Source: Escherichia phage phiWec179. Taken from it: DNA of 64,000 bases. Of the stretch, positions 24,058 through 34,699 are shown one piece after another (the first letter of the stretch is position 1; every line of letters starts with the position of its first letter). The translations under genes were made by a program, and so were the position numbers. The notes beneath the pieces were generated by a model. That model was given only the letters and a program-made list of their open reading frames with translations. It had not been told where the DNA came from and made no database searches. The DNA lies in the sequence record LC739533.1. The stretch is one strand, 5' to 3'.

Positions 24058-24714
24058 ATGACTATTAAACATATCTCTTTTGATGTATGGAACACACTGA
24101 TCACAGCAAACCCCAATTACGCAGATATGCGAGCGTGGACTATCGCAAAATACGGGGATATTACGGAAGTAGAAGCAAGAGCAGCTTACAAGAAGATCAA
24201 AAAGGAACTGGACAATGCCGCACTTCAGGGAACAGCCGAGTGTGCAGCATATGCCTGGGAAAGACTTGGTTACGAACTTGGGATAACACCTTTGAAGTCT
24301 GCAAAGCTTCGTTTCGAGTGTGAACAGTGGTTCCTTAAGTTTCCACCGCATGTGGCTGTGGATTTACCGATGCACTTGCTGTATCTTTCGGGGCGTTATG
24401 ATTTGAGCATCAAGAGTAATACCAACTTCATATCAGGAGATATCTTGCGACGTGCCTGTAAGTTTGAAGGTTGGAATTGTTTTGAGTTCACACATTTCTC
24501 GGATGAAGCTTTACTTTGTAAACCAGATCCGCGATTCTTTGCTCGCACGATCACTTATTCTCCAATCCCTCTGGTAGGGCAGGAAGTGTTGCACGTAGGT
24601 GATAGTGAAGAATATGATGGAAAATGTGTTGACGTAGGATTTAACTTCTGTCATATTAAGAACCCTAACGACTTGTTAGATAAACTTGCTAAAGGAGAAC
24701 TTGTTAATGCGTAA
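24058..24714 (+). CDS. HAD-superfamily hydrolase-like protein
   Basis: Motif I-like ISFDVWNTLI (second Asp replaced), motif II SIKSNTN, motif III CKPDP, motif IV VGDSEEYD. Confidence 0.5.
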   Translation: MTIKHISFDVWNTLITANPNYADMRAWTIAKYGDITEVEARAAYKKIKKELDNAALQGTAECAAYAWERLGYELGITPLKSAKLRFECEQWFLKFPPHVAVDLPMHLLYLSGRYDLSIKSNTNFISGDILRRACKFEGWNCFEFTHFSDEALLCKPDPRFFARTITYSPIPLVGQEVLHVGDSEEYDGKCVDVGFNFCHIKNPNDLLDKLAKGELVNA

Positions 24715-25534
24715 TCAAACTCAAATCTTTGCTCACAAATTCGATAGTCTGGAAACTGCTCGCTTTGATATTCGTGACTATTCCAAACTGAAGTTTGGCA
24801 GCAACCAGGCGGCTCGCCGTATGGGGCGAACGCTGGCAGTCTCTTTCTATGACTTGGTAGTCAAGAATATGCCGGAAGAAGAATTTGTGGTGATTCCTTC
24901 ACCTTACAACCATGTGCATAACGCAGCAACCATGATGACCAATCAGTTCATCAACTTCCTGAACCTGTTGCTGTTGAATCACAAGGGTAGCCGTGCAGTA
25001 GAATTGGATACGATCCACCGCAAGGTGAGTTACATTAACGATTATGGTTTCCTGGACAAAGCGAGCCGTAAGAAACTGATTGATGGTGACACCTTCTATT
25101 GCAACAAAGATTTTTGGGGCAACAAGAAGCTGATCTTCATTGATGATGTGAACATCACGGGAACTCATGAAGACAAACTGATTGAGATCCTGGATGAAAA
25201 TAAAGTTACGAATGATGTTTACTTCCTGTATTTTGCGAAGTATACTGGTAATCAAGCAGACACAGAGGCTAAACTGAACTTCAACCATATTAACACGACA
25301 GATGCTTTTGTTAAGATGATCAATGAAGAATGTGATGCGCAGTGTCTTGTTCGTCCTATCAAGTATTTGATGGGACAAACACCGGAAGAGTTTAAAATCA
25401 TTCTTTCCCGTTTGCCGCACCAATACGTAGAAGCACTGTTCTTTGGGTGTCTTGGGGAAGGTTATGATAAGATCGAGAAGTATTCTGAAAACTTCGTCTT
25501 CCTGAACCGTTACTTTAACCAGCATATCCTGTAA
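24707..25534 (+). CDS. Type I phosphoribosyltransferase (PRTase) domain protein
   Basis: PRPP-binding loop KLIFIDDVNITGTHED. Start at MRNQTQ after AAAGGAG RBS. Confidence 0.65.
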   Translation: MRNQTQIFAHKFDSLETARFDIRDYSKLKFGSNQAARRMGRTLAVSFYDLVVKNMPEEEFVVIPSPYNHVHNAATMMTNQFINFLNLLLLNHKGSRAVELDTIHRKVSYINDYGFLDKASRKKLIDGDTFYCNKDFWGNKKLIFIDDVNITGTHEDKLIEILDENKVTNDVYFLYFAKYTGNQADTEAKLNFNHINTTDAFVKMINEECDAQCLVRPIKYLMGQTPEEFKIILSRLPHQYVEALFFGCLGEGYDKIEKYSENFVFLNRYFNQHIL

Positions 25535-25543
25535 GGAGGGAAA

Positions 25544-26026
25544 ATGTTGAAGGTTGTTACTGGGAATCTGATCGATGCCGCCAAGAATGGGAAAGTGAAC
25601 GTTATAGCCCACTGTTGTAACTGTATGTGTAATATGGGTGCAGGGATTGCTCCGCAAATTAAACGAGCATTTCCTTATGCATATGCAGCCGACTTGGATA
25701 CAGCGGCAGGTGATCAAAGCAAACTGGGTTCTTTTAGTTTAGGGGTGCCGGAGGAAGTGTCTGACCCACTGGTTTATAACCTGTACGGACAGTACCGTTA
25801 CGGGTATAACGGTAAAGGTCGTCAGTTGGACTATGATGCCCTGTACGATGCTCTTGAGGCTATGGCAAAGGATCTCCACAAATGGGTGAACACATCTGCC
25901 AAACATAAGATTGGTCTACCTATGATCGGAGCAGGGTTGGCAGGAGGTAATTGGGCTATCATTGAAGTGATGATTGAAGAAACTTTAGTAAAAACAGGTC
26001 ACGATGTGACTATTTATAAACTTTAA
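25544..26026 (+). CDS. Macro domain protein, TARG1/OARD1-like (ADP-ribose binding or hydrolysing)
   Basis: VNVIAHCCNCMCNMGAGIAPQIKRAFP and C-terminal LPMIGAGLAGGNWAIIEVMIEE...VTIYKL, close to recalled OARD1 motifs. Confidence 0.7.
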   Translation: MLKVVTGNLIDAAKNGKVNVIAHCCNCMCNMGAGIAPQIKRAFPYAYAADLDTAAGDQSKLGSFSLGVPEEVSDPLVYNLYGQYRYGYNGKGRQLDYDALYDALEAMAKDLHKWVNTSAKHKIGLPMIGAGLAGGNWAIIEVMIEETLVKTGHDVTIYKL

Positions 26027-26039
26027 GAGGAGAAATAAT

Positions 26040-26261
26040 ATGGGTGTTGTTGCAGGTGTTCTGGCAGTAGTTATCGTGTTTGTTCTGGCTTTCCTGATTA
26101 GTATGATTCCAGCATGGCTTCTGCTGCTGGCTTATAACTACGTTGTTGAAATGATGGGTCACACAGATATCACTGTTCCTATCACCTTCTGGACTGTGGT
26201 GTGTGTGGCATTTATCATGGCTGTACTACGTGGGATCTTTTCCTCAAGTTCTTCAAAATAA
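26040..26261 (+). CDS. Small membrane protein (73 aa)
   Basis: Two hydrophobic helices. Confidence 0.5.
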   Translation: MGVVAGVLAVVIVFVLAFLISMIPAWLLLLAYNYVVEMMGHTDITVPITFWTVVCVAFIMAVLRGIFSSSSSK

Positions 26262-26264
26262 GTG

Positions 26265-26323
26265 TTGACAAGGTTTTAGAATAGAGTAAGATGTATCACA
26301 TGAGGCGGGGAGTGGTTCCCCGC
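26265..26323 (+). promoter_or_regulatory. Conserved early promoter (TTGACA-N16-TAAGAT) with 5' leader hairpin, plus-strand copy upstream of terC
   Basis: -35 (26265-26270), -10 (26287-26292), then GTATCACATGAGGCGG and hairpin GCGGGGA/TCCCCGC (26305-26323). Confidence 0.6.
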
Positions 26324-26342
26324 AAAGAGAAAGGAGAAAATA

Positions 26343-27317
26343 ATGCAACTTGGTTTTCCAATCATTGATGTAGTGGTGTTGGTAGGTATTCTTGTTCTGT
26401 CGATCTGTGTTGACTTTTTTGGTCATCGTGAAAACAAGGAGATCTCTTTCAAATCCGCTGTGGCTTGGTCAGTATTCTGGATTGGTGTGTCTTTAGCCTA
26501 CTACGGTTTTGTATACTTCCAGCACGGCGCAGCTTTTGCAAACTTATTCTTGAGTGGATATGTGTTAGAGAAGTCGCTCTCGGTAGATAACTTGGTAGTG
26601 TTTGTAGCAGTGTTCTCCAGTTTCGGGATTAAGAGCACACACTTACAACACAAAATTCTACTCTGGGGTATTGCAGGTGCGATTGTCTTCCGAGGTGTGT
26701 TTGTAGCAGCAGGGACTTATCTGCTAAGTTTGGGTTGGTTTGTTAATATCATCTTCGGTGCTGTTATCCTGTTCTGTGCTTTTAAAATGGTAATGGCTGG
26801 CGGTGATGATGAAGAAGTGGATTACTCTAAACATTGGGCGACACGCTTTGTACGTAAACTATTCCCAGTATCGGATCAGATGGATGGCGAGAAGTTCTTC
26901 ACAATTAAGAATGGTGTTCGTGTAGCAACTCCGGCTCTGGTTTGTGTGTTCGTGATGGAAATGGTGGATGTGATCTTTGCAGTAGACTCGGTTCCGGCTG
27001 TAATTGCAGTGACACAAGAACCACTGCTTGTATTCTCTTCGATGCTCTGTGCAATCTTAGGCTTACGTGCTCTGTTCTTTGTTCTTAGTGTGGCCCTGAA
27101 GTATCTGGTTCACCTGGAAAAAGCAGTTATCGCAGTCCTGGTGTTTGTTGGTGTGAAACTGATGTATCACCCGTTTGCAGAAACGCTGCACGCAAAAGTG
27201 AGCTTCCTGCCAGCGCATATTGACCCGACGATCAGCATGTATATCGTGCTTGGTACTCTGACCCTGGGCGTGATTGCAAGTTTCATCTTCCCTGAAAAAG
27301 AAGAAGCTACCGCTTAA
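26343..27317 (+). CDS. terC: TerC-family integral membrane protein
   Basis: Signature segments EKSLSVDNLVVF and AVDSVPAVIAVTQEPLLVFSSMLCAILGLRALFF; multiple transmembrane helices. Confidence 0.85.
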   Translation: MQLGFPIIDVVVLVGILVLSICVDFFGHRENKEISFKSAVAWSVFWIGVSLAYYGFVYFQHGAAFANLFLSGYVLEKSLSVDNLVVFVAVFSSFGIKSTHLQHKILLWGIAGAIVFRGVFVAAGTYLLSLGWFVNIIFGAVILFCAFKMVMAGGDDEEVDYSKHWATRFVRKLFPVSDQMDGEKFFTIKNGVRVATPALVCVFVMEMVDVIFAVDSVPAVIAVTQEPLLVFSSMLCAILGLRALFFVLSVALKYLVHLEKAVIAVLVFVGVKLMYHPFAETLHAKVSFLPAHIDPTISMYIVLGTLTLGVIASFIFPEKEEATA

Positions 27318-27325
27318 TACCAATG

Positions 27326-27347
27326 AACCTCCTTCGGGAGGTTTCTT
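27326..27347 (+). terminator. Rho-independent terminator
   Basis: Stem AACCTCC / GGAGGTT with TTCG loop, followed by a T-rich tract. Confidence 0.65.
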
Positions 27348-27365
27348 ACTAACATAGGAGGAATT

Positions 27366-27716
27366 ATGTCTGTATATTTTGACGATGTTCAGGAATATGT
27401 TTGGTGTCTTTCTGGCACAATCTCGGAAGTAGAAGCTGCGATTCAAGAGGTTTTTCCTTACGCTTATGTAGAAGTTAAACAGGCACCTCCTATGGATCTT
27501 CCCCCTAATGTGGAAGCTTGTTGTGGTTCCGGCGAGGGTACAGTCATCCCAGTTCTGCGTTACGAACTACAAGCAGCAAGTGCAAATGTCGATGATATTA
27601 TTACAGAAATTAAGGCGTATGGTTTCTGGACCTCTCCTTACGCTAAATGGGATAACTCTGACACTTGGGATTTATTCTTCTGGGATAATGAGACAGATGA
27701 CGAGGTATTTCTGTAA
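27366..27716 (+). CDS. Hypothetical acidic protein (116 aa)
   Basis: Intact ORF with AGGAGG RBS. Confidence 0.55.
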   Translation: MSVYFDDVQEYVWCLSGTISEVEAAIQEVFPYAYVEVKQAPPMDLPPNVEACCGSGEGTVIPVLRYELQAASANVDDIITEIKAYGFWTSPYAKWDNSDTWDLFFWDNETDDEVFL

Positions 27717-27958
27717 TGAAAGTTGTTTGGGTTGTGTTTGAAAATATTTGTTTTGCAATAGGTTTGTTCGTCATACTTTTTGTGTTGACAAACGTGATCA
27801 ATGGTAGTAAAGTATCCCTATACAAAGACGGGGAGCAGATTTACTGCTTCTCTGGAGATTTCAAACACACCTGTGTTAATATGCAGAAAGAAGAAACTCC
27901 ACACCAGAAGTCAAGAGAAGATTTTGATTGGTGGTCACTACTTAATAACTTAAGATGA
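27716..27958 (+). CDS. Small membrane protein (80 aa)
   Basis: N-terminal transmembrane helix VVWVVFENICFAIGLFVILFVL. Confidence 0.5.
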   Translation: MKVVWVVFENICFAIGLFVILFVLTNVINGSKVSLYKDGEQIYCFSGDFKHTCVNMQKEETPHQKSREDFDWWSLLNNLR

Positions 27959-27967
27959 GGAGAAAAT

Positions 27968-28837
27968 ATGAAAAATATTCAGCCATTACCTGTAGTTGGG
28001 GATTTGTATTTCTTATCTGGTACGGGTTATTCCCCAGAAGCATTAGAAGTTAACAAGAACGTCTTCCGAGTGAAAGAAATAAGAGAAGAATGTAATGAAA
28101 TTGTTTTCGAAGGTATTACTAATGGAGTTCTTCAGTATGCAGAGATGCGTAGCTGCTTCCAGCAACCTTTCCGCCCGTTGGCAGACGAGTATAAGATTGC
28201 GGTAAATATTGATGATCTTAAAAAAGAACCAGGGTTCGAAGCGTTCTCTACTTTTATGGAAGATACGTATGTGGATGTAAAGAGATCTAACCTTTTCGCG
28301 GGGGATAATTTCCCTCACTTTGTGTCAGAGAAAAGTGATGGTTTTTCCGACTACGTGGATGCTGTAAACTATGATGTTTCTGAATTGACAGGAGAGCAGG
28401 ATTATCTTCTGCTGTCTCCTAAAGATTTCATGCGCGTAATGTATGCCGTAGCCGAACAGAAAAAGAAGAAAGAAAAGCTTGTAGCCAAAAAAGTTAAAAA
28501 GGTTAAAGGTAAACGTGCCAAAGGTGTTCCAGAACGTAAGCGCACCGTAAATAAGGCGACAGTCTTCTTTACCAGCGGTGAGCAATATACGATCAAAGGT
28601 TTTAAAGAAGTGGGTTACACTGCTGGCGGAAACCTTCTGTTCTTCACAGTTGCAGAAGAAGGAGAAACTTTTATCCGTTTTTCCAATATGTGGGAAATGT
28701 CTGTAGAAGATATTAAAAGTGTTGTTGTTTTAGGTGTACATAAGAGTTTCATTATTAATCAAATCTCTGATTTCAGTGCACACTTGACAGCACCAGATTT
28801 CGAAACTACCACAACAAGCTTTAACTTCAAGGTGTAA
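27968..28837 (+). CDS. Hypothetical protein with central Lys-rich segment (289 aa)
   Basis: Intact ORF with GAGGAG RBS; KKKKEKLVAKKVKKVKGKRAK stretch. Confidence 0.6.
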   Translation: MKNIQPLPVVGDLYFLSGTGYSPEALEVNKNVFRVKEIREECNEIVFEGITNGVLQYAEMRSCFQQPFRPLADEYKIAVNIDDLKKEPGFEAFSTFMEDTYVDVKRSNLFAGDNFPHFVSEKSDGFSDYVDAVNYDVSELTGEQDYLLLSPKDFMRVMYAVAEQKKKKEKLVAKKVKKVKGKRAKGVPERKRTVNKATVFFTSGEQYTIKGFKEVGYTAGGNLLFFTVAEEGETFIRFSNMWEMSVEDIKSVVVLGVHKSFIINQISDFSAHLTAPDFETTTTSFNFKV

Positions 28838-28840
28838 TGC

Positions 28841-29431
28841 ATGAATACCGAGAGAGATTTAAAACTCTTGTGGTGGGAAGTGATGCAGGAGATCAAGGAG
28901 GATTTCCCTGTTTACTACAACATGCTACGTGAAGCTGGATATACGGCTTGCGTTAGGAACAAAGTGAATAACTCTTTCGGTTGGTGCAACTACCGAGAAA
29001 AGATTGTTGTTGTGAATTGGCACTTGCATAAAAACTCCACAAGGGATATGATAGTGGACACAATGAAGCATGAGATTGCTCATGCGATCGACGGTTGTAT
29101 GGGTAAGTTCAGTCGTCATGGACCACACTGGCAAAAGCTGGCAGCAGAGTTGGGAGCCAATCCTAAAGCTACTTCCAAAGAACCGTTAAACCATGAGTAC
29201 AAATATGTTCTTGTTTTGGTGGACAGATTTGCCACAAGATGTGTTAGAGGGTATAATCGTAAACCTAACCGTATGACTCCAGGGAAACAACCACATATTT
29301 GGTTGAAGAGTGATAAAGAGGGGACAGAAGGAAAAATATGGTTGTATAAATGGGAAGATTGGGTTAAAGTAGCTAAAGAATATGGTGTTTCACCTTACAC
29401 AAGAGAAATAGAAGAGGAGAATGAAGAATGA
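28841..29431 (+). CDS. SprT-like zinc metalloprotease domain protein
   Basis: HExxH motif MKHEIAHAI followed by HGPHW. Confidence 0.5.
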   Translation: MNTERDLKLLWWEVMQEIKEDFPVYYNMLREAGYTACVRNKVNNSFGWCNYREKIVVVNWHLHKNSTRDMIVDTMKHEIAHAIDGCMGKFSRHGPHWQKLAAELGANPKATSKEPLNHEYKYVLVLVDRFATRCVRGYNRKPNRMTPGKQPHIWLKSDKEGTEGKIWLYKWEDWVKVAKEYGVSPYTREIEEENEE

Positions 29432-30540
29432 CAAGTCCATTTTTGAAAGCGGCAACTGGTGGTCAAAAGAAATCTGAAACGAGTGTACTGACTGCTACTA
29501 CAGATGCAAGCAAGTCCGTGTTCGCTCCGAGTGTCCTGGATGCAAGTCCAGTGTATGCTCCAGCAGCGCCAAAAGCTGTGCCTACCTTGCCAACAATGTC
29601 TCGTAAAGAGATTGAAGAAGTGGGTGCAGAAGCAGGTTTAACTCTCCGCACGCTGAATGCCGAAGTGTTAAAGCACCAACGTAGCAATCAAGGCGATGAA
29701 ATGAGCCAACGCCTTACCGCGCTGATTAAACAAGCCAAACAGCTTGATCCTGCTTCTATCAAGCAGAGCAAAGGTGTAGGCAAACTTATCAAGAAACTGA
29801 TGGGTATGAAGGAAGATCTGTTCGGGGAATTCGATAATGTGAACAACCGTATCGAAGAACTCGTTAAGAATCTTCAGATGGATATTCGTAAAGAAGAAGA
29901 TTCTCTGGTGTACCTGGAGAAGCTGCACCAGGCGATCGGACAGTACGCCGCAAGCCTGAATCGTGATATGGAATTACTCACAGCAGCTTATGAGCAAGAA
30001 CTGGCTAACTTTGAAGCTACGCCAGAAGATGACGTAGAAGCCCGTCAACGCGTCCGTGACACGCTTGATCTTCTGGAGATACGTATTGCTGACTTGAAGG
30101 CATTACGCTTGCTGTGCGTGCAAATGGGTCCGCGTGTATTGGGTATGCAGAAAGTATCTGCCAGCCTCATGCGTTCTGCTCGTAATATTGTGAACAATGT
30201 GATTCCTGCTTACTCGGCAAACTTCTCGATGTATATTGAAAGTCTGCGCCAGAAGAAAGCAGCAGAAACACAGAACAACGTTCTGGACGAGTTCAACCTG
30301 GCAATCAAACTGGGTAGCGATCTTGCCACACAGAACCAGATCGAAGCAGCAGCACTGGCTAACCGCCAAGTGTTGGATATCGAAACTCTGCGTCACGATC
30401 AGGAGAACTTGGTTAAGATGTTGGAAGAAACTAACCGCATCAATACGGAAGCCCGTGCTGCCCGTGTTGATTACATCAATGAAGTTCAATCTCTCGAAGA
30501 TGGGATGGTTGACGCTGTTAAGAAGGGGTTGGGTAAATGA
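29428..30540 (+). CDS. TelA-like (toxic anion resistance family) coiled-coil protein
   Basis: 370-aa largely helical protein adjacent to TerC and TerD; family call is from recalled profile and context. Confidence 0.45.
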   Translation: MTSPFLKAATGGQKKSETSVLTATTDASKSVFAPSVLDASPVYAPAAPKAVPTLPTMSRKEIEEVGAEAGLTLRTLNAEVLKHQRSNQGDEMSQRLTALIKQAKQLDPASIKQSKGVGKLIKKLMGMKEDLFGEFDNVNNRIEELVKNLQMDIRKEEDSLVYLEKLHQAIGQYAASLNRDMELLTAAYEQELANFEATPEDDVEARQRVRDTLDLLEIRIADLKALRLLCVQMGPRVLGMQKVSASLMRSARNIVNNVIPAYSANFSMYIESLRQKKAAETQNNVLDEFNLAIKLGSDLATQNQIEAAALANRQVLDIETLRHDQENLVKMLEETNRINTEARAARVDYINEVQSLEDGMVDAVKKGLGK

Positions 30541-30743
30541 GAATCCGTGTATACATGCTTGACGAACAAGCTGGAGAAATAGGTGTTCGTTATGATGAAG
30601 AGAAACGCTTTGCCCCAATGACCCAGCTACAAACTCCAGATATTTTTGCAGCTTGTCGTGACGGATATATCTATGAAGGTTGTCGCAACTTTGGCAGATT
30701 TAAAGTTATTTCTGATGTGGAATTTAACGAGGAGGAAGAATGA
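30537..30743 (+). CDS. Hypothetical protein (68 aa)
   Basis: 4-nt overlap coupling. Confidence 0.5.
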   Translation: MRIRVYMLDEQAGEIGVRYDEEKRFAPMTQLQTPDIFAACRDGYIYEGCRNFGRFKVISDVEFNEEEE

Positions 30744-30910
30744 AAACATTGCGTGTGAACATCGAAACTACCTGGCGAGATTTCGAGGTTGTTGATATTG
30801 AGATTGAAGACGATATGTCTCAAGAAGATATCGAAGATCTTGCAAAAGAAACATTTCAGGACTATTGTAATTACGGGTTCCATATTTTAGGGGAGGAAGA
30901 AGATGTTTAA
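30740..30910 (+). CDS. Small acidic hypothetical protein (56 aa)
   Basis: ATG overlaps the upstream stop and the stop overlaps the next ATG; not in the ORF track. Confidence 0.4.
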   Translation: MKTLRVNIETTWRDFEVVDIEIEDDMSQEDIEDLAKETFQDYCNYGFHILGEEEDV

Positions 30911-31301
30911 ACACACAAACGTAAACTTGAAATTAACAGTAACAGATCCGACTCTTTTCATCAATCTTACAAGCGGGGAAGTTTATGAAGTTATCACAGA
31001 CGAGGATGGTTCTTGCTTCCTTAAAGGTTATTATCTCTGTGAATCTGATGAGTTGGTATCTATTATCACCTTGGGAGAATACGAAGAACCAGGCTTCCGT
31101 GTGGAGGTTGTTAAGAATCCCGATATTATCCAGTTGACTCGCCAAGAACTGATCACAATCATGGAAGACGCTTTTATTGATGGATGGAAGACTCAAAACT
31201 ATGATTGGAGTGGCCCAGAAGACTTCCTGCGTCTTCATAAAGAGTATGACGATTCCAGCGAAACTACTATTGCCATTGATAGTATTAAGGCTGGTGTGTA
31301 A
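30903..31301 (+). CDS. Hypothetical protein (132 aa)
   Basis: Intact ORF with GGAGG RBS. Confidence 0.6.
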   Translation: MFKHTNVNLKLTVTDPTLFINLTSGEVYEVITDEDGSCFLKGYYLCESDELVSIITLGEYEEPGFRVEVVKNPDIIQLTRQELITIMEDAFIDGWKTQNYDWSGPEDFLRLHKEYDDSSETTIAIDSIKAGV

Positions 31302-31370
31302 TGAAAAGTGTTGACAACAATCTCCATAAGATGGATAATACCTCCATCGAAAAAACGGGAGGAGATAAGA

Positions 31371-31643
31371 ATGTTTGATTTTAAAATAAAGGATTCAAAA
31401 CCCCAAGATGTAGCAGTTCGTTTCGAAGAGTTGGGGATTGGTGAAACTTTCATGTATTATTCAGCATATGAAGAAAATGGTTTGGATACATTTGCAAACT
31501 TAGTATTCCTTAAAAGCGGCGGCGCGACTGCTGTTTGTTTGAATAGTTCATCAAGAGGGAGTGTCCATACCGTATCCCCAGATGTGCCGATGGTTGCAGT
31601 TCGTTTAGTAGTTACTGATATTACACTTACAGAGGAGAAATAA
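31371..31643 (+). CDS. Hypothetical protein (90 aa), cassette paralog A
   Basis: MFDFKIKDSKPQ...SAYEENGLD; paralog of 32665..32946. Start after GGGAGGAG RBS. Confidence 0.55.
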   Translation: MFDFKIKDSKPQDVAVRFEELGIGETFMYYSAYEENGLDTFANLVFLKSGGATAVCLNSSSRGSVHTVSPDVPMVAVRLVVTDITLTEEK

Positions 31644-31644
31644 T

Positions 31645-32445
31645 ATGTCCAATAAAATTAGCCTGAAGAAACGCCAAGACACCCTGACCATTTCACTGAA
31701 GAAAAAGAAAATTGTCAACGAAGATCAAAAGATCGTTCTGCGTGTTGCAAGCGCACTGGATATCTCCGGCAGCATGTCCAGCCTGTATCGTAACGGTACT
31801 GTAAGTGAGTTTGTTGGTAAGCTGCTTCCGTTTGGTATGCTGTTCGATGATAACGCGCAGATCGATATGTGGGCTTTCAACAATAGCTCTCGTGAAATCA
31901 CTCCAGCAACTGCTGATGTGTATGATGATTACGTTGGTAAATGCATTAATGGTCGTGTAACAGTCCAGGGTGGCACAAGCTATGCACCTGTTATGCAGGA
32001 TATTTACGATTCCTACTTCGGTAGCACCACTAAATATGAAACTGTAGAAACCCCTGTAACCAAAGAAGTTCCTAAGAAAGGTTTCTTCAACCGTTTACTG
32101 GGTAAAACCGAAACTGTAGAAGCTATTGTAGAAAAAACTGTAGCCGTTGCTGTGCCTGGTGTAGACGTTACTCCGGCAGTTGTGTTCTTCCAGACAGATG
32201 GAGAGAACGATGATCCGAGCCGTGTACTCTCCGTACTGGAAAAGAACAAGGGTAAACCTATTTACTGGTTCATGGTGGGTGTTGGTAGTGCTCGTTTCTC
32301 TTTCCTGAAAGATTTGGCTGAAGCTTACGACAACGTAGCATTCATTGGTCTGAACGATCTTTCCTTGACAGACGAGCAGCTTTACGATAAACTCTTGTCT
32401 GAAGAGTTCGGTGAGTGGGTTGAAAAGGTTGGTGCTAAGAAATGA
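31645..32445 (+). CDS. von Willebrand factor A (vWA) domain protein, TerY-like
   Basis: MIDAS motif DISGSMS, downstream GGTSYAP and VVFFQTDGENDD. N-terminus ISLKK...ISLKK resembles the TerD N-terminus. Confidence 0.7.
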   Translation: MSNKISLKKRQDTLTISLKKKKIVNEDQKIVLRVASALDISGSMSSLYRNGTVSEFVGKLLPFGMLFDDNAQIDMWAFNNSSREITPATADVYDDYVGKCINGRVTVQGGTSYAPVMQDIYDSYFGSTTKYETVETPVTKEVPKKGFFNRLLGKTETVEAIVEKTVAVAVPGVDVTPAVVFFQTDGENDDPSRVLSVLEKNKGKPIYWFMVGVGSARFSFLKDLAEAYDNVAFIGLNDLSLTDEQLYDKLLSEEFGEWVEKVGAKK

Positions 32446-32684
32446 TCGACACGCTGATCTCTCAAACGGTGTTGCAAGTGATGCGTGAGAGAGAAGCTTT
32501 CATCATGAAGGGTCTTAAAGATTATTTTGGGACTCTTTCTTTGGAAGAACTCAAACTACGCGTTGAGATCCATGCGTATCCTTCTTATGAAGAATGGATT
32601 GACAAAGCAAATAAAGCTGTTATAATGCGTATCAACAAACCAGAAATCACGACAGGAGGACAAGATGTTAAATTTCGCCATTAA
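32442..32684 (+). CDS. Hypothetical protein (80 aa)
   Basis: 4-nt overlap coupling. Confidence 0.5.
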   Translation: MIDTLISQTVLQVMREREAFIMKGLKDYFGTLSLEELKLRVEIHAYPSYEEWIDKANKAVIMRINKPEITTGGQDVKFRH

Positions 32685-32946
32685 GAAAGATAGCAAACCA
32701 AAGATTCAGACTTGTCGCATTGCAAATCTTACACATGGTGATTTGTTTGTTCTGAAAAGTGCCTACGACGAAGACGGTCTTGATCCAGAAGCAGTCGTCG
32801 TTTATATGGTGTTGCGGCGAGATGAAGACACCAAGCACCCATACAATGCGGTAGAGATGAATTACAATGCAATGTTGTGCTCAATACACTATACGGCAGA
32901 GTTGGTGCAGGTAGAGTTAACAGTTAACGAAATTAAACTTAAATAA
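32665..32946 (+). CDS. Hypothetical protein (93 aa), cassette paralog B
   Basis: MLNFAIKKDSKP...SAYDEDGLD; paralog of 31371..31643; AGGAGG RBS. Confidence 0.55.
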   Translation: MLNFAIKKDSKPKIQTCRIANLTHGDLFVLKSAYDEDGLDPEAVVVYMVLRRDEDTKHPYNAVEMNYNAMLCSIHYTAELVQVELTVNEIKLK

Positions 32947-32961
32947 TAGAGGAGACACATA

Positions 32962-33564
32962 ATGAGCGATAAAATTTCCCTGAAAAAAGGTTCCACCGAG
33001 AAGATTTCCCTGAAGAAAGTTGCTCCGGCACTGAAAGAACTGCGTCTGGAGTTCTCCTGGAAATCAAACTCTAAACTGGATCTGGATGTAAGCGCACTTG
33101 TATGCCGACACAACGCCTCTGGCAACCCTGAAATGCTGTCTGCACGTCATCTGGTTTGTTATGCTAACAAGTTTGATCCAGAACGTTCTGTATTCGCAGG
33201 TGATGATGTTCGTGACGGTACTGGTCAAATGGAACAAATCGATGTAACCTTGGCTAAGATCTCCGATAAAGCCGAAGAGATTGCTTTTGTCCTAACTATT
33301 GATGATGAAACGGGTCAGAAACGTCTGGGTCACGCTACTGAAGGTATGCTGAAGATCTTTGATGCCGAGCGTAACGTTGAGATCCTGGACTTCGACTTCT
33401 TGGCTCCTGAAGTGGCTGGTAATACCATCTGCCACGTAGCTTCCCTGGTTCGTGAAGACGGTGAATGGAAACTGAAAGCTTACGGTGTTGGTAAAGCAGG
33501 TATGGATATCTGTGATGTGGTTATGGCCTTCGGTGGTCAGAAAGAATGGTACGATTGCCCGTAA
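32962..33564 (+). CDS. terD: TerD-domain protein
   Basis: Aligns along its length with recalled TerD: ISLKKGSTEKISLKK, DLDVSAL, GDDVRDGTGQMEQIDV, IAFVLTIDDE, EDGEWKLKAYGVG. Confidence 0.8.
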   Translation: MSDKISLKKGSTEKISLKKVAPALKELRLEFSWKSNSKLDLDVSALVCRHNASGNPEMLSARHLVCYANKFDPERSVFAGDDVRDGTGQMEQIDVTLAKISDKAEEIAFVLTIDDETGQKRLGHATEGMLKIFDAERNVEILDFDFLAPEVAGNTICHVASLVREDGEWKLKAYGVGKAGMDICDVVMAFGGQKEWYDCP

Positions 33565-33584
33565 GATTTAACTGAAATGTTGTT

Positions 33585-33600
33585 GGGGGAGAAATCCCCC
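33585..33600 (+). terminator. GC hairpin (GGGGGA-GAAA-TCCCCC), weak terminator candidate
   Basis: Directly after the terD stop; no clean U-tract. Confidence 0.3.
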
Positions 33601-33601
33601 A

Positions 33602-33630
33602 TTGCAAAAACGCCTCTCATGTGTTATACT
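33602..33630 (+). promoter_or_regulatory. sigma70-like promoter (TTGCAA-N17-TATACT)
   Basis: Hexamers at 33602-33607 and 33625-33630; AAGGAGG RBS and TTG start follow. Confidence 0.55.
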
Positions 33631-33661
33631 GGTAGTTCATTCACCCAAAAGGAGGCAAAAT

Positions 33662-34183
33662 TTGCTGATAAAAAACTTTGTAACAGTTGCGTTACTATCC
33701 TTAACTGCTTTTACATTTACACCTGTCACGGCAACCGCCGAAGCTGCAAACGTAAAGACTGCTAAAGTAGTTCACAAATGTGCAAAGCAAGATACTAAAG
33801 AAAATCTCTTGGCTTGTGCAATTTACGCTGAAAGTCGTAATCAGGGTAAACGTGGGATGTATGCTGTAGGTAATGTAGTATTGAACAGGAAAGGTGATGA
33901 TTACTTCCCTGATAATATTAAAGATATTCTCTTCCAACGAGGACAATTCTCTTACAGGAAGAAGTTTAACGTTACCGAAGCAGAGCGATGGAAAGAAGCT
34001 AAAGCTATCGCAAAACGACTTATATACCTGGATACACACTTCCCTACACTTAGAGAAGCCCAGGACATGACAAAAGGTGCGACATTTTTTAAGAAAGTAA
34101 AAACCCGTGCACACTGGACAAAAGATATGGTCTTAGTGTATCGTTATAAAGAACATCAGTTCTACCTACCGACAAGGAGCTAA
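33662..34183 (+). CDS. Secreted cell-wall hydrolase, SleB/Hydrolase_2-like
   Basis: Probable TTG start. Signal peptide LIKNFVTVALLSLTAFTFTPVTATAEA; motifs AIYAESRNQG, GMYAVGNVVLNR, FPDNIKDILFQRGQF. Confidence 0.6.
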   Translation: MLIKNFVTVALLSLTAFTFTPVTATAEAANVKTAKVVHKCAKQDTKENLLACAIYAESRNQGKRGMYAVGNVVLNRKGDDYFPDNIKDILFQRGQFSYRKKFNVTEAERWKEAKAIAKRLIYLDTHFPTLREAQDMTKGATFFKKVKTRAHWTKDMVLVYRYKEHQFYLPTRS

Positions 34184-34184
34184 T

Positions 34185-34469
34185 ATGCGAGAAGATAATA
34201 CTGTTGTTGTTGCGAGCTATCTCGTTATCGGTTTAACCGAAGAAGATGTGTACTACATTCGTAAAGGTTTGGAAGCTTACGCTACCCTCTTCATGGAAGA
34301 CGAAAGCGATGTTGATAAATATTCCGTGGAGTTGATCAACGACAGTATTTATCCTTGCATAGCTCTTAAAGTAGATGCTGTTCTGTGGGAGCGTTTTGCA
34401 AGAAGTCACGATGCTATTGAATCTTCAATGGTTATGACACAAAACAACATTTTGGGGGTGATTCACTAA
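34185..34469 (+). CDS. Hypothetical protein (94 aa)
   Basis: Intact coupled ORF. Confidence 0.55.
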   Translation: MREDNTVVVASYLVIGLTEEDVYYIRKGLEAYATLFMEDESDVDKYSVELINDSIYPCIALKVDAVLWERFARSHDAIESSMVMTQNNILGVIH

Positions 34470-34699
34470 TGGCAGATATCATTGAGGTAAACTTCCGTAC
34501 TCGGAAGAAAGTAGAGAAATATACAATATTGAAAAGTGTTTGCGTTGTTTGTTTCAATAGTGTAATCTACGATTCAAGAAAGGGCGAAGACGGTAATGAG
34601 CCGTATATCGAACTGTCAAAGGGCAACGGTAGTTGCATTTGTAAAGCTTGTGCTGTTCAGATTAAGGGGGTTGTTGATGAAAACGAATGGGATAAATAA
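34469..34699 (+). CDS. Small Cys-rich protein (76 aa), possible zinc ribbon
   Basis: CVVC...CICKAC pairs. Confidence 0.5.
   Translation: MADIIEVNFRTRKKVEKYTILKSVCVVCFNSVIYDSRKGEDGNEPYIELSKGNGSCICKACAVQIKGVVDENEWDK

Follow-up and report, generated by a model that had tools for sequence, protein, structure and literature searches.

Lineage-matched N-terminal motifs in the vWA and TerD proteins of a phage-borne Ter module, with a small paralog upstream of each gene, in Escherichia phage phiWec179

Ter gene clusters occur widely among bacteria, plasmids and phages and have been linked for decades to tellurite, colicin and phage resistance, and we know of no account of how TerD, TelA, TerC and the TerF-type vWA proteins act together. 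The definition of the cluster, the phage modules with TerC, TerF-vWA, TerD and TelA, and the role of the PRTase and HAD components have been set out by Iyer et al. 2021 (PMC7824862), and a phage Ter module was also noted in phage phiKp34 (PMC8386662). We have analysed a 64,000-nucleotide (nt) stretch of Escherichia phage phiWec179 (LC739533.1; referred to throughout as the window), and describe here a locus of this Phapecoctavirus-like coliphage that, judged by its predicted proteins, is the TelA-vWA-TerD core of a phage-borne Ter (tellurite-resistance-like) module for membrane stress or exclusion. Its components are those of the abbreviated, phage-borne form of the Ter stress-response/exclusion system (terZABCDEF, telAB-type), namely TerC, TelA, a vWA-TerF-like protein and TerD together with PRTase_3 and HAD proteins, and it has the same vWA-TerD linkage as other phage-borne Ter systems, for which a lytic-phage carrier has already been reported (PMC7824862, PMC8386662). 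The locus departs from the known Ter systems in having a duplicated small gene with a predicted SH3-like product, with one copy before vWA and the other before TerD, and extra small open reading frames (ORFs) between TelA and TerD, and it differs from the terZABCDEF clusters in that no TerB, TerZ, TerA, TerE or TerF paralog arrays are present in the window. The duplicated accessory gene, and the covariation of a motif preceding the vWA domain with the first hairpin of TerD, appear to be new; the covariation is not described in the Ter literature examined, which did not cover Anantharaman et al. 2012, so that priority for the motif is uncertain.

The vWA-TerF-like protein (266 residues; 31645..32445, plus strand; PF10138, 129.3 bits, E=2.7e-37, cut-off 29.4) and the TerD-domain protein (200 residues; 32962..33564, plus strand; PF02342, 103 bits, E=1.8e-29, cut-off 25.3) begin alike, with 14 of 20 residues identical (MSNKISLKKRQDTLTISLKK and MSDKISLKKGSTEKISLKK; pairwise E 0.006), and nothing can be aligned beyond the first 20 residues. 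A first-pass annotation of this DNA had proposed that the gene after each of two small paralogs starts with MS(N/D)KISLKK and encodes a vWA protein in the first instance and TerD in the second, and the coordinates, Pfam assignments and alignment all agree with it. In TerD the shared stretch has a clear structural context. Residues 5-180 correspond to positions 3-178 of the 187-position PF02342 profile, and phmmer aligns residues 5-184 to the solved structures 3IBZ_A and 2KXT_A (E 3e-14 and 6e-14) in an alignment that takes in the N-terminal VSLSKGGNVSLSK hairpin and the DLDxSA and GD(N/D) segments. The same hairpin and both segments are common to Klebsiella TerD (2KXT/2KXV), the Streptomyces TerD-like protein (3IBZ) and the window TerD, although identity is only about 25-30% and the phage hairpin is more basic, containing KISLKK twice. 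Residues 4-19 (KISLKKGSTEKISLKK; 32971..33018, plus strand) align with VSLSKGG-NVSL(T/S)K at residues 3-17 of 3IBZ and 2KXT, and the ISLKK...ISLKK stretch is, by this alignment to solved structures, the canonical first beta-hairpin of TerD itself.

In the vWA protein the corresponding stretch is a tandem hxLxK motif at residues 4-20 (KISLKKRQDTLTISLKK; 31654..31704, plus strand) that is not covered by the Pfam model, whose match begins at residue 33. Its positions L7, K9 and L18 are conserved in at least 90% of 66 homologues, and the motif is kept down to 25-30% identity. We examined 129 distinct vWA-TerF-like proteins (86 viral and 80 bacterial loci), and each contains two to four copies of [ILVFYM]x[ILVM]x[KR] within the 50 residues that lead up to the domain; the density there is 6.2 per 100 residues, as compared to 0.31 per 100 residues elsewhere in the protein. 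Run on the 34-residue vWA N-terminus alone, the Pfam TerD model gives no match, and the likeness to the TerD hairpin therefore rests on direct alignment and on covariation rather than on a profile. The position of the motif is variable, being at the N-terminus in the window, 40-70 residues into the protein in the vWA homologues of gut phages, and about 200 residues in, within the linker, in bacterial TerD-linker-vWA fusions. The motif is charged and amphipathic and has no hydrophobic signal-peptide core.

The vWA and TerD genes are close neighbours in most of the loci that contain them. Of the 86 viral loci, 67 have a TerD gene that begins within 400 nt after vWA, and 53 of the 80 bacterial loci encode both domains as a single fused ORF. 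More distant phage relatives (L012, L021 and L022; loci of the comparison are given by L numbers) have the order TelA-vWA-TerD, whereas in a clade of gut phages (e.g. L027 26-2356; L058 164-2209) a P-type cation ATPase, and not TelA, is directly upstream of vWA-TerD. The ATPase is of interest in this position because TerD binds Ca2+ and because a Ca2+-ATPase is present in Jug phages. The Jug phage enzyme is described in PMC12880540. Many lineages have the pair without a small gene, and for that reason we regard vWA followed by TerD as an ancestral, co-oriented pair that is, on this phylogenetic distribution, older than the small genes. The bacterial TerF-type fusions (TerD-linker-vWA; Paenibacillus and Methylomicrobium, P0101-P0105) have the same two domains and the same tandem hxLxK before vWA as the phage proteins, for example AISLKKREVIITLEKK of P0104, but whereas the phage has separate polypeptides with vWA preceding TerD, the fusions have TerD at the N-terminus with its own first hairpin often degenerate.

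These distributions bear on the origin of the shared N-terminus. The first-pass annotation had suggested a duplicated cassette of a small gene and a gene with an ISLKK leader, the downstream domain having been swapped by module shuffling, or else a common N-terminal targeting element; on this account the leader or targeting peptide is portable. The two pairs do have the same order, in which a gene that begins MS(N/D)KISLKK comes after a small gene, and the small genes are paralogs, but we consider this account very unlikely. All 129 proteins have the motif ahead of the vWA domain, including those of bacteria and of phages that have no small gene; it is internal in the fusions and the gut-phage homologues; in TerD it belongs to the fold; and the vWA-TerD adjacency is older than the small genes, which number from none to two per locus. 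At the DNA level there is no excess of shared codons, the serine codons differ, and only imperfect repeats of 23-25 nt are found at the motif. The positions of the motif in the fusions and gut phages exclude both a leader or targeting peptide and a phage-specific shuffling of modules, and what survives of the earlier proposal is a shared N-terminal element that is real and under selection, although not a portable one. A recent segmental duplication was also considered as a separate candidate and rejected, since the small paralogs are only 34% identical, codon sharing is at expectation, and zero, one or two small genes occur around an invariant vWA-TerD pair.

The two motif sets also change together. 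In the window the vWA motifs are KISLKK and TISLKK and the TerD motifs KISLKK and KISLKK, whereas at four other loci (L003, L013, L017 and L020) both proteins have KVSLKK, and at L021 vWA has LSLEK and TerD has LTLEK and LSLEK. At L043 and the bacterial locus L096, vWA has AFNLEK and FVLEK and TerD has FKLEK or FNLEK followed by FNL(T/D)K, with phenylalanine in all four copies; at the bacterial locus L105, vWA has SYDIRK and YNLRK and TerD has SYQLSK and YAIAK, with tyrosine in all four; and in the large gut-phage clade the vWA motifs IDMSK, INMSK and IDMTK are matched by INMSK and ISMTK in TerD, with methionine replacing leucine in all five. The hydrophobic residues thus match between cognate vWA and TerD proteins and differ by lineage (I/I, V/V, F/F, Y/Y and L to M). 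The mean motif score is 38.7 for cognate and 27.3 for non-cognate pairs (permutation p ~5e-5 with 15 dereplicated pairs and no phylogenetic correction). Three TerD genes are present at L058, and it is the adjacent one, with MVNLVKGQKVDLTK, that agrees best with the LVNLSKKSKVDLTK motif of vWA; at L096 the covariation holds with TerD upstream of and more than 1 kb from vWA. Within the fusions the motif before the vWA domain keeps the canonical hxLxK form and resembles that of neighbouring stand-alone TerD proteins. The short N-terminal match is marginal taken alone, but its recurrence in every relative examined and its covariation by lineage show that the similarity is not one of chance or of low-complexity residues, which had been raised as the way in which the first-pass annotation could fail.

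Matching motifs could also arise if recurrent gene conversion between the neighbouring 5' ends caused the DNA to evolve in concert with no functional meaning. The arrangement is suitable for it, with the motifs about 1.3 kb apart on the same strand and two families of direct repeats (D1 and D3) that are the only ones linking both genes, and in the window nine of 13 identical residues share a codon where 5.7 are expected. Over 49 locus pairs, however, codons are shared at 212 of 404 identical residues against 217 expected from codon usage, and in the window the longest exact DNA match is shorter than 10 nt and the serine codons are of different families (TCC/AGC and AGC/TCC). Codon sharing at expectation together with serine codons of different families indicates that the constraint acts on the protein and not through conversion of the DNA, and the covariation at L096, where TerD is upstream and distant, and in distant bacteria is also contrary to conversion, which we regard as highly improbable.

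The two small genes are the second unusual component of the locus. Small paralog A (31371..31643, plus strand; 90 residues), the copy before vWA, is a predicted SH3-like small beta-barrel, and small paralog B (32665..32946, plus strand; 93 residues) is the copy before TerD. They had been put forward as paralogs, and this is well supported, as they align over their full length with 34% identity and 51% positives (BLASTP, E=2e-10 in a single comparison), and both match phrog_11278 (A with 2.9e-28 over positions 1-92 of the 92-position profile, and B with 2.2e-16 over positions 1-89), a family for which we know of no function. The start of small A is best placed at the ATG at 31371, backed by the family alignment and by a GGAGGAG Shine-Dalgarno sequence, and a longer ORF initiated by GTG runs from 31308. 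The stop codon of small A is 1 nt before the vWA start codon, and small A and small B lie 1-15 nt upstream of their partner genes; in the relatives too the gaps or overlaps between small gene and partner are tight, with junctions of the translational-coupling type.

The phrog_11278-type family is restricted to Phapecoctavirus-like phages, with 71 phage records. An exhaustive hidden Markov model search of 1.84 billion cluster representatives gave 16 matches at E<=0.001, of which 11 are small (54-93 residues) members of the family; the search also gave spurious matches to multiple stretches of very long proteins, and a word-indexed protein search with small A found a single near-identical cluster only. 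Neither the small proteins nor the 80-residue ORF between vWA and small B has a match in Pfam, NCBIfam or PADLOC. The AlphaFold2 model of small A (11 family members) is a confident small beta-barrel (predicted local distance difference test score, pLDDT, 88.7), and its matches in a viral structure library are uncharacterised phage proteins only. Any resemblance to SH3-like barrels such as the SH3-like domain of ribosomal protein L2, domain I of EF-P/eIF5A, FeoA, the C-terminal domain of DtxR and Tudor/KOW domains is at the level of fold only, with 5-21% identity, Z always below 8 and no Pfam match.

Three layouts are found: small-vWA-x-small-TerD in the window, phAPEC8, L008 and L088; vWA-small-TerD in L003, L004 and L012; and small-vWA-TerD in L005, L006, L011 and L016. 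In a neighbour-joining tree all of the copies before vWA are on one side and all of those before TerD on the other. The tree is suggestive of a duplication long ago, after which copies were lost differently among lineages while each paralog stayed with its own partner.

Taken together, these observations lead us to an explanation in which an ancestral vWA-TerD pair has covarying motifs under one shared constraint, with the small paralogs acting as accessory factors linked to each partner; we would put its probability at roughly one half. Both motif sets would engage the same site, such that a single binding environment constrains them. This could come about in either of two ways, with the vWA motif pairing with, or exchanging for, the TerD hairpin by beta-sheet augmentation, or with both motifs docking on a common third component, for example TelA, TerC or the membrane. 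Under either arrangement vWA and TerD, although made as two polypeptides, would stay associated much as they do through fusion in bacteria. Small A and small B would be old, fast-evolving SH3-like paralogs that serve as dispensable, partner-specific adaptors or regulators (A for vWA and B for TerD), and this is the weakest part of the proposal.

Several observations weigh against this explanation. The covariation amounts to perhaps five or six independent concordant changes of lineage. Among the TerD-vWA fusions (L107-L166) the N-terminus of the fused TerD is often degenerate (e.g. MEISKGQRLPLSS and SLNTGQNTSLHE) and does not match the motif before vWA. The AlphaFold2 model of the vWA protein (66 homologues) has motif residues 7-20 as an alpha-helix and not as a hairpin, with pLDDT of 82-96, so that the monomer model does not bear out simple structural mimicry of that hairpin of TerD. 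Small genes are missing from close relatives, including L009 and L013-L022, and from most vWA-TerD pairs, and the split between A and B has bootstrap support of only 131 of 300 (44%). They are also the fastest-evolving genes of the cluster, with 42-51% identity to phAPEC8 as compared to 91% for TerD and 90% for TelA, and the fast evolution, patchy presence and 44% bootstrap would fit unrelated 'moron' genes equally well.

The helix in the model raises the alternative that the vWA motif is an integral amphipathic helix packed on its own domain, with its likeness to TerD being a relic of common origin, for example at the boundary of an ancient TerD-vWA fusion, or else that a third factor, for example a chaperone, the membrane, TelA or TerC, recognises both motifs in extended form, in which case vWA and TerD would not touch directly through the motif. 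Besides the confident prediction of residues 7-20 as a helix, the vWA version is without the glycine turn of TerD (KRQDTL as compared to KGSTE), and the copy number and spacing of the motif vary by lineage. The variant with a third partner is fully compatible with covariation, but a relic would not go on tracking the changes of its partner, as the motif does with F/F, Y/Y and the five parallel changes of leucine to methionine. The vWA copies of the gut phages and L058 moreover have exactly the tight spacing of the TerD hairpin and align to it with no gaps, and hydrophobicity along residues 4-20, averaged over the family, has its strongest periodicity at 160 degrees, a beta-like value (the beta moment is 1.13 and the alpha moment 0.62). 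The conformation of the vWA motif could be context-dependent, and overall we regard this alternative, with its two variants, as rather doubtful.

A more specific version of the shared-constraint explanation is that the hxLxK element before vWA is a co-evolving mimic of the cognate TerD hairpin, and that, by pairing of strands or exchange of hairpins, it joins vWA and TerD like a zip within a sub-membrane Ter assembly, as the non-covalent equivalent of the fusion. There would then be a lineage-specific 'address code' of I, V, F or Y at position 1 and L or M at position 3 by which cognate pairs stay together, and in Phapecoctavirus-like phages each of the two predicted SH3-like paralogs would act on the strands of its own partner as a chaperone or gatekeeper. 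We offer this only as a speculative and, as it stands, unlikely model.

The behaviour of the small genes suggests a further possibility, that they are unrelated to vWA and TerD and are instead fast-evolving accessory genes, with roles such as host takeover or anti-defence, that occupy permissive intergenic slots and were duplicated locally. Their rapid divergence and their absence from most vWA-TerD pairs fit this well, other small ORFs (68, 56, 132 and 80 residues) fill the same interval, and the predicted barrel is a generic SH3-like one whose structural neighbours are only uncharacterised phage proteins and for which PADLOC, Pfam and NCBIfam provide no match. However, every member of the family that we found directly precedes vWA or TerD and none occurs in any other position, the junctions with the partner genes are of the translational-coupling type, and the paralogs group by position, albeit with weak support. 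We consider it possible that the small genes are such passengers, although we lean away from it.

For the rest of the vWA protein the AlphaFold2 model has a confident vWA fold (pLDDT 93.5), Foldseek matches it to the vWA domains of RGLG1, integrin I, TRAP and BON1 (E ~1e-6 to 1e-5), and the metal-ion-dependent adhesion site (MIDAS) motif DISGS is at residues 39-43, with D39, S41, S43, T111 and D185 invariant in the 66 homologues. A long beta-arm (residues 127-171) is inserted in the domain, and the amphipathic sequence GFFNRLLG (residues 146-153; 32080..32103, plus strand) is placed at its tip in the model. We also note that a motif of the GF(F/L)xKLFGKK type shifts position among Ter proteins. 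It occurs as MGFLGKLFGKK at the extreme N-terminus of gut-phage (L027-L087) and Firmicutes vWA-TerF homologues, and after the GLGWD strand in some bacterial TerD paralogs (L112, L137, L165 and L166), and it could be a membrane-binding helix.

Small B and TerD may also be transcribed separately. A consensus scan identifies a sigma-70 promoter with all 12 of 12 consensus positions (TTGACA-16-TATAAT with an extended -10 TG; 32599..32626, plus strand) inside the 3' end of the 80-residue ORF and about 40 nt upstream of small B, and it is conserved in phAPEC8 (L001 10191-10218), which suggests that small B and TerD form their own transcription unit for the host RNA polymerase. A weaker promoter-like site matching 11 of 12 positions (TTGACA-17-GATAAT; 31311..31339, plus strand) is about 30 nt upstream of small A, and there is none at the equivalent place in phAPEC8. 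The totals of promoter-like and terminator-like sequences in the scan are not above the expectation from shuffled sequence.

All of the genes from 24058 to 33564 are on the plus strand, and Pfam identifies TerC, TelA, the vWA-TerF-like protein and TerD in one co-oriented cluster with PRTase_3 and HAD genes upstream. The TelA-like protein is encoded at 29428..30540 (PF05816, 119 bits) and the TerC integral membrane protein at 26343..27317 (PF03741, 136 bits). Just upstream of TerC are genes for a HAD hydrolase (24058-24714), a ComF-like phosphoribosyltransferase of the PRTase_3 family (24686-25534) and a Macro-domain protein with a weak DarG-like match (25544-26026), all three by Pfam/NCBIfam, and an SprT-like protein gene is also among the upstream genes of the cluster. 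The phage would on this gene content carry a putative nucleotide-signal biosynthesis arm of Ter as well as a membrane hub. Every sequence comparison made places the proteins within the TerD family, the vWA-TerF-like family and the phage Ter module, and no PADLOC model matches the Ter module of the window.

Four further small ORFs of 68, 56, 132 and 80 residues are located in the interval from TelA to TerD (30537-31301 and 32442-32684) and correspond to phrog_24000, 1997, 14200 and 22387, with function not known for any of them; the last of these (phrog_22387; 32442..32684, plus strand) overlaps both the vWA stop codon and the small B start codon. In phAPEC8 an additional 187-residue gene (gp061) is present before small A. 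A SleB-like cell-wall hydrolase (PF07486, Hydrolase_2; 33602-34183) lies 3' of TerD in the window, and is also found after TerD in phAPEC8, L003, L005 and L006, being annotated as an endolysin in the reference genomes.

The region is closely related to those of several other coliphages. Window positions 26000-34500 are 100% identical to Escherichia phage phiWec181, with 95% identity to phiWec188 and phiWec190, and phAPEC8 and other Phapecoctavirus (Stephanstirmvirinae) phages are 78-80% identical over 65-68% of the 8.5-kb query. One contig filed as 'MAG: Proteobacteria bacterium' (L088, JAEZZU010000159.1) is that of a Phapecoctavirus-like phage; its vWA protein is 73% identical to that of the window and its small-vWA-small-TerD layout is the same. 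Records for Pseudomonas phage PsgM04F and Acinetobacter phage ABPW7 have 95% and 78% DNA identity to the coliphage sequence, and the small B homologue of Campylobacter phage B15 has a score and identity equal to those of the phAPEC8-group coliphages. The host labels of these three records may be unreliable.

Should the motif turn out to be irrelevant, what remains is a phage Ter module of the usual kind with two accessory ORFs that evolve fast. The short covarying motif provides a concrete and cheap test of physical coupling between vWA and TerD, and the predicted SH3-like paralogs, as a lineage-specific addition, could be handles with which to pull down the complex in a tractable coliphage. 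Coupling of this kind, if it is real, would explain why the two domains are sometimes fused.

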